Shown: in pieces, positions 27,049 to 28,785 of the stretch | How positions within the stretch are numbered: position 1 is the first letter of the stretch | Layout: every line of letters begins with the position of its first letter | From: Octopus sinensis | Taxonomy: Eukaryota | Length of the DNA: 35,726 nt | Direction of reading: 5' to 3' | Assembly: GCF_006345805.1 (NCBI RefSeq) | Contig: NW_021828061.1 | Span: 1 to 35,726 of the forward strand | Notes under the pieces: model-generated | What the model was told of the DNA's origin: nothing | Seen by the model: only the letters and a program-made list of their open reading frames with translations | Databases searched by the model: none | Made by a program: the position numbers and the translations under genes

Positions 27049-27049
<1 letters not shown>

Positions 27050-27325
27050 ACATTATTGGTGAATTGAAGAAATGGAGCTGAACGCAGATTGAACAGAAAT
27101 CGTTTTATTTCATTCTACACGTGTTTCGAAAGGCACAAATTACCAAAATCCGATTGAATAATGGGACCATATTGTGTCTTTCTCTTCAGGAAGAAAAAAG
27201 GAAATCCATTGGAAAAACAAAAACAGAACAGAGGCGGAGCAAAAAACAAATCGAACTGTGCTCCTAAGAGCCCATGGCGAAACTGTTTATCAGTGTATGT
27301 TGAGAACCGGTGGCTGAAGAATTCA
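27049..27325 (-). repeat. Left inverted arm of the Penelope-like element
   Basis: AACATTATTGGTG...GAAGAATTCA is the reverse complement of 28358-28633. Confidence 0.97.
27105..27199 (-). ncRNA. Type I hammerhead ribozyme, second copy on the minus strand
   Basis: Exact reverse complement of the 28483-28577 core: TCTTCAG at 27183-27189, TTTC at 27124-27127, TAC at 27116-27118. Confidence 0.85.
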
Positions 27326-27398
27326 GCACTCTGAAGAATTCAGCACTCTGATAGATAGTGGAGAATCAGGGGTTATTCCTATAGTTAATAGTGACGTA

Positions 27399-27886
27399 GT
27401 GGAAAATAGAGTAGTAAGCGGCTGCAGGTCTCGGAACGAATATAGTGACAGGAACGCAGTTCTAATTTCAGAAACTAATCCTAGCAGATTAAGATTCACG
27501 TCGGCGAACTCCAAGATCAAAAACGCCGTCTACCAATGCAAGGTTTACACGGACTCAGATGCCTTCACTTATGTAGGGGCATCATCCTCAAGATTGTCTT
27601 TGCGTGTCTCCAACCATTACGCAACTTTTCGGGACGTGAACAAGCGCCAGACCACGGGACTCAGTAAGCTAATATGGCGACTGAAGGATGCGAACTTAAG
27701 CTATAGGCTGGAATGGTCAATTTTGTCGGTGGCCCTCCCATTTGATAGGGGCAGAAGACAGTGCAACCTTTGTGTCTCCGAACTCTTCCATATTTTGTTT
27801 GCCAGAGGCCGGATGGTAAACGGCTCTTACAGTCGGCTTTTCGATGCCCCCATTGGCGGCGTTACACTTATCTGGCCTTTAAATAG
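27399..27886 (+). pseudogene. GIY-YIG endonuclease domain of a Penelope-like element, N-terminally truncated, with a frameshift near 27822
   Basis: NAVYQC...TYVG...RVSNH...TGLSKLIWRLK...WSIL...CNLCVSE...MVN matches the PLE endonuclease pattern as I recall it. The -1 frame from 27824 reads LLQSAFRCPHWRRYTYLAFK*, supplying the terminal C-x-H motif. The frame is open upstream to 27318, so the GTG start is not the native start. Confidence 0.88.
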
Positions 27887-28357
27887 CGTTTATAAATAAT
27901 ACCGGCACCCATAGCCCTTGGTAACAAATTCTGAAATAGCCTTTAAGATATCTACGATTAACCACTGCAAGGGGAATTACTCCTGTAAGACAAACGGGGC
28001 TTGGTTTTTTCACAGCGGGGGGTTCCTTGACAAGGCAGGCTTAGATGACACACACACATAAAACATAATATATATATATATATATATTTTTTTTTTTTCT
28101 TTCTGCCACCAACGGTTATCACGGCAGTAGCCACTGACAGCCGAACGATCAAACGCACACACTACACAAAAAATGTTTCTACCCCTACGCCAACACACAC
28201 ATATATAGAACAGTATACACACACACACGTCTCTAAGTAGATTTTTTCTCGCCCCTTATAAAACATCCAATATTCTTTAAATAGTCAGAACTTTATTCTC
28301 GGTCACAAAGAACATCTATACACCCTCACCCACATGATTGACCGATGCCTGACCCGT

Positions 28358-28633
28358 TGAATTCTTCAGCCACCGGTTCTCAACATACACTGATAAACAG
28401 TTTCGCCATGGGCTCTTAGGAGCACAGTTCGATTTGTTTTTTGCTCCGCCTCTGTTCTGTTTTGTTTTTCCAACGGATTTCCTTTTTTCTTCCTGAAGAG
28501 AAAGACACAATATGGTCCCATTATTCAATCGGATTTTGGTAATTTGTGCCTTTCGAAACACGTGTAGAATGAAATAAAACGATTTCTGTTCAATCTGCGT
28601 TCAGCTCCATTTCTTCAATTCACCAATAATGTT
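28358..28633 (+). repeat. Right arm (pseudo-LTR) of the Penelope-like element
   Basis: TGAATTCTTCAGCC...CACCAATAATGTT pairs with 27049-27325. Confidence 0.97.
28483..28577 (+). ncRNA. Type I hammerhead ribozyme (PLE-associated, palindromic stem III)
   Basis: CTGAAGA at 28493-28499. Stem II GAAAGACACAA/TTGTGCCTTTC (10 of 11 pair). GAAA at 28555-28558. Stem III is the ACACGTGT palindrome. GUA cleavage triplet at 28564-28566. Stem I TTTCTTC/GAA(T)GAAA. Confidence 0.85.
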
Positions 28634-28785
28634 TTAATTTCAATTATCCGCACCAACGCACGGTTGCAACGCCAGATGGTTGTACCTCCAACCGTGCTGT
28701 TTACTGCTGTGATTTTTGCTACTAAGGTATCGGTTAAACCTTTGATTAATCTACTACAAGATTATTCATCTTTCTATTTCACATA

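Follow-up and report, generated by a model that had tools for sequence, protein, structure and literature searches.

Introduction

In Hydra-clade Penelope-like elements (PLEs) a CxCX5C linker has been associated with (TA)n targeting (PMC8557442). The one-sided tail and the inverted pseudo-LTR (pLTR) of PLEs are known qualitatively from the available text of the same article, and the combination of a hammerhead on both strands with an inverted copy is already in print there for this clade, as Penelope-13_HM from Hydra has a 5'-truncated inverted copy (File S1) and its hammerhead on both strands (File S2). For the hammerheads themselves, the accessible part of PMC4209133 describes a dimer-type motif of which a single minimal copy did not cleave in vitro and which requires a partner on the same strand for helix III; opposite-strand hammerhead pairs 100-700 bp apart are already noted in it. 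As far as the available text of PMC11167929 goes, the PLE protein, for which a dimer is predicted, both cleaves and extends the two strands in vitro, two internal start sites of reverse transcription (RT) bound the tail, hammerhead cleavage is not needed, and no difference in start site was seen between the two strands.

Here we analyse a PLE copy of Octopus sinensis that bears a hammerhead motif on each strand. The window, that is the whole stretch of DNA analysed, is 35.7 kb long and constitutes a small unplaced contig in its entirety. We read the copy as a single 5'-truncated head-to-head PLE insertion (probability about 0.85), likely dead on arrival. Its inverted arm likely stems from a second priming event on the same RNA while the copy was being inserted.

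Anatomy of the window copy

The copy and its flanks comprise the following features (window coordinates).

26964-27049, no strand: left (TA)n target repeat (tandem-repeat analysis: period 2, 44.5 copies)
27049-27325 (277 nt), minus strand: inverted 5'-truncated arm, a copy of 28358-28633, with its outer end at the fixed short end of the family
27104-27199, minus strand: hammerhead motif of the inverted arm, predicted cleavage at 27116
27314-27351, plus strand: junction, a 2-nt microhomology join with a spanning 17-nt tandem duplication (templated insertion)
27318-27899, plus strand: stop-to-stop frame with GIY-YIG fragment, 193 aa, no start codon, no RT
27341-28787, plus strand: sense 5'-truncated element body, corresponding to the last 1454 nt of the full-length copy L032 (98.8% identical)
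28318-28787, plus strand: 3' pLTR, the stretch directly repeated at the 5' end of full-length L032
28358-28633 (276 nt), plus strand: stretch mirrored in the inverted arm (arm alignment)
28395-28405, plus strand: hot spot where the arms of many other copies stop, possibly where the template RNA has its 5' end
28483-28578, plus strand: dimer-type hammerhead (type I, palindromic helix III), predicted to cleave after 28566
28634-28787, plus strand: one-sided tail, about 151 nt long, bounded by the short and long fixed ends (comparison of ends across copies)
about 28788-28803, no strand: right (TA)n target repeat (read from the sequence)

The initial annotation had described two nearly identical inverted arms of about 276 bp, each with a complete hammerhead, that enclose a GIY-YIG ORF without RT and are flanked by (TA)n, and the sequence agrees on each point, the ORF being a truncated fragment. 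The alignment of 27049-27325 with the reverse complement of 28358-28633 contains 1 mismatch (27208/28474) and a 1-nt indel in an A run, the hammerhead core CTGAAGA lies at 28493 on the plus strand and at 27189 on the minus strand, and (TA)n runs are present on both sides. The panhandle that had been proposed for a read-through transcript is likewise predicted by folding of the full unit, in which the arms pair; it would be perfect if the unit were read through entirely. The A>G difference at 27208 was considered as RNA editing and rejected, as it is a change private to the arm relative to the family and is present in DNA-type runs.

The frame carries AVY at 27525, YVG at 27570, CxxC at 27762 and a catalytic Glu near 27780. 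No Met precedes residue 166 of 193, which lies downstream of the catalytic motifs, and the frame is therefore a truncated fragment of an endonuclease (EN) and not a gene. The C-terminal CxH is lost through a 1-nt deletion at about 27822, where a G is missing. At this G-run three G were found in 83 occurrences and two G in 2, counted over overlapping family loci, and the latter two are probably the window's own loci. Since the window copy contains several 1-nt deletions of the kind typical for unpolished long reads, the deletion at 27822 may be a long-read error.

Searches of Pfam with the window frame and the L032 frame and of PDB sequences returned no match, and in Foldseek GIY-YIG chains ranked top with a best E-value of 0.098, none being below 0.001. 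The GIY-YIG nature of the window frame is nevertheless supported by the rank-4 set of the Atlas, in which GIY-YIG (PF01541) was assigned to 40% of the members (score 0.95), and by a structure model of the L032 EN domain (mean pLDDT 76), which aligned with the I-TevI catalytic domain over 89 residues (Z 9.3, rmsd 2.4) and with T4 EndoII at Z 8.7.

The parent family

The search of the own genome, in which the best 40 of 2324 candidates were scored, gave at least 107 matches at 96-100% identity among these best 40. The full-length copy L032 (5343-9454, G000:C1) contains a 3641-bp full unit, a 5' direct repeat and an inverted arm of 3.5 kb, and its 867-aa open frame contains the RT motifs FDIAS, GSSDS and YRDD followed by a C-terminal EN as in the window. 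The Penelope-like origin and the position of the hammerhead inside the pLTR, as assumed in the initial annotation, are supported. There were 14 homologues at E <= 1e-64, one of them with PF00078, and RVT_1 matched in 2 of the 12 aligned members. Direct 5' repeats were found in L032, L038, L046 and L050 and inverted arms at 88 loci. Exact matches in the 2.7-Gb genome numbered 2986 for the hammerhead, 2056 for the tail, 384 for TA plus arm end and 258 for the RT motif. The parent is thus very probably an abundant, young, autonomous, RT-encoding PLE with features of the Hydra clade. Because full-length relatives encode RT and the sense part of the window copy corresponds to the last 1454 nt of L032, its EN-only state amounts to plain 5' truncation.

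The L032 frame also holds two long low-complexity inserts (N/S/G/P-rich), one after the thumb and one before the EN, which are absent from most homologues and recall the N-rich inserts of rotifer Penelopes.

In the first 100 hammerhead places listed, 29 head-to-head pairs with partners no more than 8 kb apart account for 58 places; their spacings run from 56 to 6583 bp, and no pair is arranged tail to tail. Of the 88 two-armed loci, 12 (that of the window among them) retain the EN only and bear hammerheads in both arms, and each of these has a junction of its own. Insertion in this family thus routinely leaves a hammerhead on each strand, since head-to-head pairs are common and the 11 other EN-only copies have their own junctions. 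The second hammerhead would be no more than a consequence of the double copying of the pLTR, in which one hammerhead is present.

The insertions lie in (TA)n: (TA)4 was present within 20 nt of 191 of the 194 outer ends examined at 99 loci, about two dozen of these ends having been selected on TA, as compared with 9% of random places in the window.

The family is young, is present in thousands of copies with near-intact full-length members and resembles Hydra-clade PLEs, and the unit flagged in the initial annotation is ordinary debris of it. Hundreds of family loci could form perfect hairpins and would probably yield double-stranded RNA on which host silencing could act. Half or more (61-80%) of the words of the element were present in 19 of the 24 public runs listed, and these 19 come from several differently coded organisms. 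The apparent near-identity of the family across more than one organism label may reflect close kinship, mislabelling or horizontal transfer.

Comparison with described elements

Like other EN+ PLEs, the full-length copies (L032 and its homologues) have a single ORF with RT plus a C-terminal GIY-YIG domain, direct and inverted pLTRs, a one-sided tail and a hammerhead motif in the pLTR. With the Hydra clade (PMC8557442) the family shares a C-terminal GIY-YIG domain in which CCHH is absent, with one Cys only between AVY and YVG; the modification of DKG to DKT (SDKTRN at residue 94 of the L032 frame); CxxC and CxH flanking a conserved E and N (CNLC..E..N..CPH in L032, invariant in alignment A2); the (TA)n insertion target; and a hammerhead with palindromic helix III. 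It departs from that clade in the length of the unit (3641 bp vs generally <3 kb for published units), in the two low-complexity inserts, in a tail of about 151 nt and in two motifs. The N-terminal RWK is replaced by RWL (RIRWL in L032), while homologues P0002, P0003, P0006, P0007 and P0009 have RWK or RWR. The CxCX5C linker before the EN is lost, the first Cys alone being left (GCRSRNEYS). This linker is kept in 9 of the 10 homologues of alignment A1 (the remaining one is without the region), is also absent from the closest EN relatives P0015 and P0016, and a similar motif is kept in 64 of 89 relatives with enough upstream sequence. By its motifs the family appears to work like a Hydra-clade PLE and is a candidate member of that clade. 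By targeting (TA)n despite the lost linker, it provides a counter-example to a role of the Cys linker in directing such targeting.

Membership in Naiad/Chlamys was rejected, as their EN is N-terminal and the EN here is C-terminal, and membership in Penelope/Poseidon, Neptune and Nematis was rejected because CCHH inside the GIY-YIG core is absent. Hydra-1_Obim (2507 bp) differs from the octopus family in hammerhead sequence and in length, and the latter is therefore another family.

The insertions resemble canonical EN+ PLE insertions (Pen2/Pen2a in the available text of PMC3846280; the legend of fig. 2 in PMC8557442) in the inverted 5'-truncated copy by the 5' end, in microhomology joins, in a tail at one end only and in long low-complexity ORF inserts. 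They differ from these in a tail of 151 nt instead of 30-40 nt and in that no target-site duplication is readable in (TA)n.

The hammerhead motif

In the sense copy helix I is formed by 28483-28492/28567-28578 and the long helix II, with G10.1-C11.1, by 28500-28510/28544-28554; GAAA follows at 28555, helix III is the 8-nt palindrome ACACGTGT (28558-28565), and the GUA cleavage triplet ends at 28566, with its mirror position in the inverted arm at 27116 (both predicted). As a monomer the hammerhead has a helix III of only 2 bp, and for 28480-28580 the fold constrained to the hammerhead reaches -12.6 kcal/mol vs -16.9 kcal/mol for the minimum free energy fold, a difference of 4.3 kcal/mol. Two helix III strands were computed to pair at -10.3 kcal/mol. 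A search of the window and the element against Rfam gave no hammerhead match, which is uninformative given the long loop II, and the assignment of the motif therefore rests on direct inspection and folding. Across the family the core is intact in 156 of 160 sampled copies and the helix III palindrome is kept in 146 of these 156. The sole recurrent core variant affects the tolerant position 7, with CTGATGA in 6 and CTGAAGA in 150 of the 160 copies.

The predicted motif agrees with the minimal metazoan PLE hammerheads of PMC4209133, as described in its accessible part, in being of type I with a long helix II, a palindromic helix III and a dimer architecture; it differs in a loop II of about 33 nt. 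Self-cleavage of the window unit from either strand, as envisaged in the initial annotation, appears doubtful because the dimer type needs a partner on the same strand, while the two motifs of the window sit on opposite strands. Non-LTR retrozymes, in the available text on them (bioRxiv 10.64898/2026.07.22.740005), likewise have a PLE-derived pLTR with a type I hammerhead; theirs are same-strand tandem repeats, whereas the window copy is head-to-head and single.

Outer and inner ends of family copies

Outer ends fall into two classes about 151 nt apart, termed short (about 28620-28636 in window coordinates) and long (about 28775-28787). The 99 non-redundant loci comprise 88 complete two-armed copies, 2 cut by the edge of the locus and 9 that are single-armed or cut. 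Of the complete two-armed copies, 87 combine a long with a short end, one (L089) has two short ends and none has two long ends, in a sample drawn mostly from one chromosome and with three of its four groups selected on an end or junction. In the unselected group, obtained from hammerhead pairs, the long-plus-short combination occurs in 28 of 29 copies (P about 6e-8 if the ends were independent at 0.5). The first 100 listed tail places include one opposite-strand pair, which is internal, and no terminal pair of long ends.

A 14-site haplotype could be compared between the arms of 61 copies, and the two arms agree in 57 of them (mean of 15 and maximum of 26 in 2000 shuffles), the other 4 being discordant. 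Such agreement could also be due to gene conversion between the arms, or to two RNAs that stem from a single source locus.

Inner ends vary more. In 6 copies the long arm consists of the tail only and has no sequence in common with the short arm. Among 65 simple copies outside the set selected for fold-back, 14 have a short arm that extends beyond the long one by more than 35 nt, and 29 have both inner ends within 35 nt. Single-armed copies also end at the short site (L110). In the two groups least biased towards the EN, an inner end equivalent to 28390-28410 was found in 16 of 43 simple copies.

Palindromes of about 630 bp that consist of the pLTR only, centred at about 28395 (window equivalent 28395-28787), occur at 36 loci, including L122-L136. 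As a spreading MITE-like subfamily they were rejected on the several haplotypes and variable centres of the 15 examined; they look newly formed on each occasion, at a template 5' end that is fixed or at a pause site. If the site near 28395 is the start of an RNA, transcripts from either pLTR of the window would run outward and would not contain both arms.

Origin of the inverted arm

We infer the following order of events. In a (TA)n run, the GIY-YIG protein of a full-length copy would cut both strands. One of the DNA ends would prime reverse transcription at the long internal site (28787), the cDNA reaching 27341, and the other would prime at the short site (about 28635), with a cDNA reaching 28358, one uncleaved RNA serving as the template for both. 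The two cDNA ends would then be joined through the 2-nt microhomology with the 17-nt templated duplication. The combination of long and short ends, the shared haplotypes, the long arms made of tail only, the copies whose short arm is the longer one and the in vitro data (PMC11167929, in its accessible part) together favour such twin priming on one RNA, to which we give slightly better than even odds.

A stricter form is about an even bet. In it, a dimeric PLE RT-EN obligately primes both ends of one (TA)n break from a single RNA, at two fixed internal sites separated by 151 nt, so that a long start is paired with a short one and never with a second long one. If true, the inverted pLTR and the one-sided tail of PLEs would both follow from a single step. 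The family resembles the in vitro system of Poseidon PAc, in the available text of PMC11167929, in two fixed internal ends that bound the tail, an AT-rich target and a template copied through the hammerhead site; PAc differs in having adjacent sites and a hammerhead that overlaps with the start of the ORF, and the long/short pairing per insertion is not reported in that text. The long/short asymmetry is not explained by these data, as no difference between strands was seen in them. In the literature searched, which did not extend to subscription journals, we found neither a count of long-plus-short pairing nor a twin-priming model for PLEs. With the end statistics of the family, the origin of the inverted repeat and of the one-sided tail can be addressed by counts across the whole genome and by tests in the in vitro system already described.

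A second possible origin of the arm is fold-back, in which a single cDNA, primed at the long site, would have switched back to its own strand, or to an antisense template, and been extended by copying it as far as the short site. Such self-priming has been proposed in the accessible part of PMC3846280, and it would fit the haplotype common to both arms in most copies, the nearly coincident inner ends and small palindromes in 29 of the 65 simple copies, and the window arm, whose entire sequence is found within the sense part. Neither the tail-only long arms nor the short arms that are the longer of the two can, however, result from fold-back along the long arm, and the short site, which also ends single-armed copies, acts as a start and not as a stop site. 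We therefore regard fold-back as unlikely, though as the better of the remaining explanations.

The recent one-off inversion, which the initial annotation had offered as one of two readings, is supported, the copy being 98.8% identical to L032. The junction search suggested there returned one exact match in the 2.7-Gb genome and one when up to 2 mismatches were allowed. The window junction was present in 0 of 29 other top loci, which continue into upstream element sequence or join elsewhere, and no other locus among the 88 two-armed ones has inner ends within 30 or 60 nt of those of the window. L082, considered as a sibling on the basis of its hammerhead spacing (1305 vs 1326 in the window), was rejected since its junction is different. 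The join itself consists of a CA microhomology and a 17-nt re-copy, and comparable templated duplications are present at the junctions of L044, L103 and L115. Template slippage or polymerase-theta-type joining may be its source.

It is very improbable that a chimeric long read or a collapsed repeat created the inversion during assembly. The contig is small, unplaced and no longer than the window itself, the window copy has homopolymer deletions, and no record spanning the junction was seen among four contig-type runs, which cover the family rather than the locus and in which the native upstream element sequence appears as loose ends at 27341. Against an artefact, the arm ends exactly at the short end of the family and abuts (TA)n as at 87 other loci, the templated duplications recur at the three junctions named above, and the fold-back of a read would have mirrored the flank, which is not mirrored. 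A search for an empty site found no allelic copy of the left flank in assembly G000.

The other reading of the initial annotation, by which the copy would be a self-propagating unit, non-autonomous but with TIR-like ends, and would be transcribed and mobilised as a whole, fails the junction check proposed there. It has almost nothing left in its favour beyond the near-perfect arms of a young copy and the recurrence of the small palindromes in the family, since the window junction is unique in this assembly, no ATG precedes the EN, and the small palindromes vary in centre sequence and haplotype with both arms matching within each, which points to repeated new formation and not to one spreading unit.

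Other repeats in the window

A dispersed repeat family of about 120-220 bp has seven copies in the window that are 70-91% alike and occur in both orientations:

3084-3309, 6055-6184, 11946-12146, 15583-15762, 17892-18096, 24851-25056 and 29788-29963, both strands: copies of the dispersed repeat of about 120-220 bp (mutual similarity)

The family would be SINE-like by its size; a tRNA search of the window found no tRNA, including none for these repeats. Directly left of the TA run, an older repeat family ends at 26810-26965 (82-90% identity, 2370 first-look candidates). Some of its copies are head-to-head and CTGATGA is present in 2 of the 3 copies inspected, and the repeat may represent the 3' end of a further Penelope-like family, one whose hammerhead has a half core.
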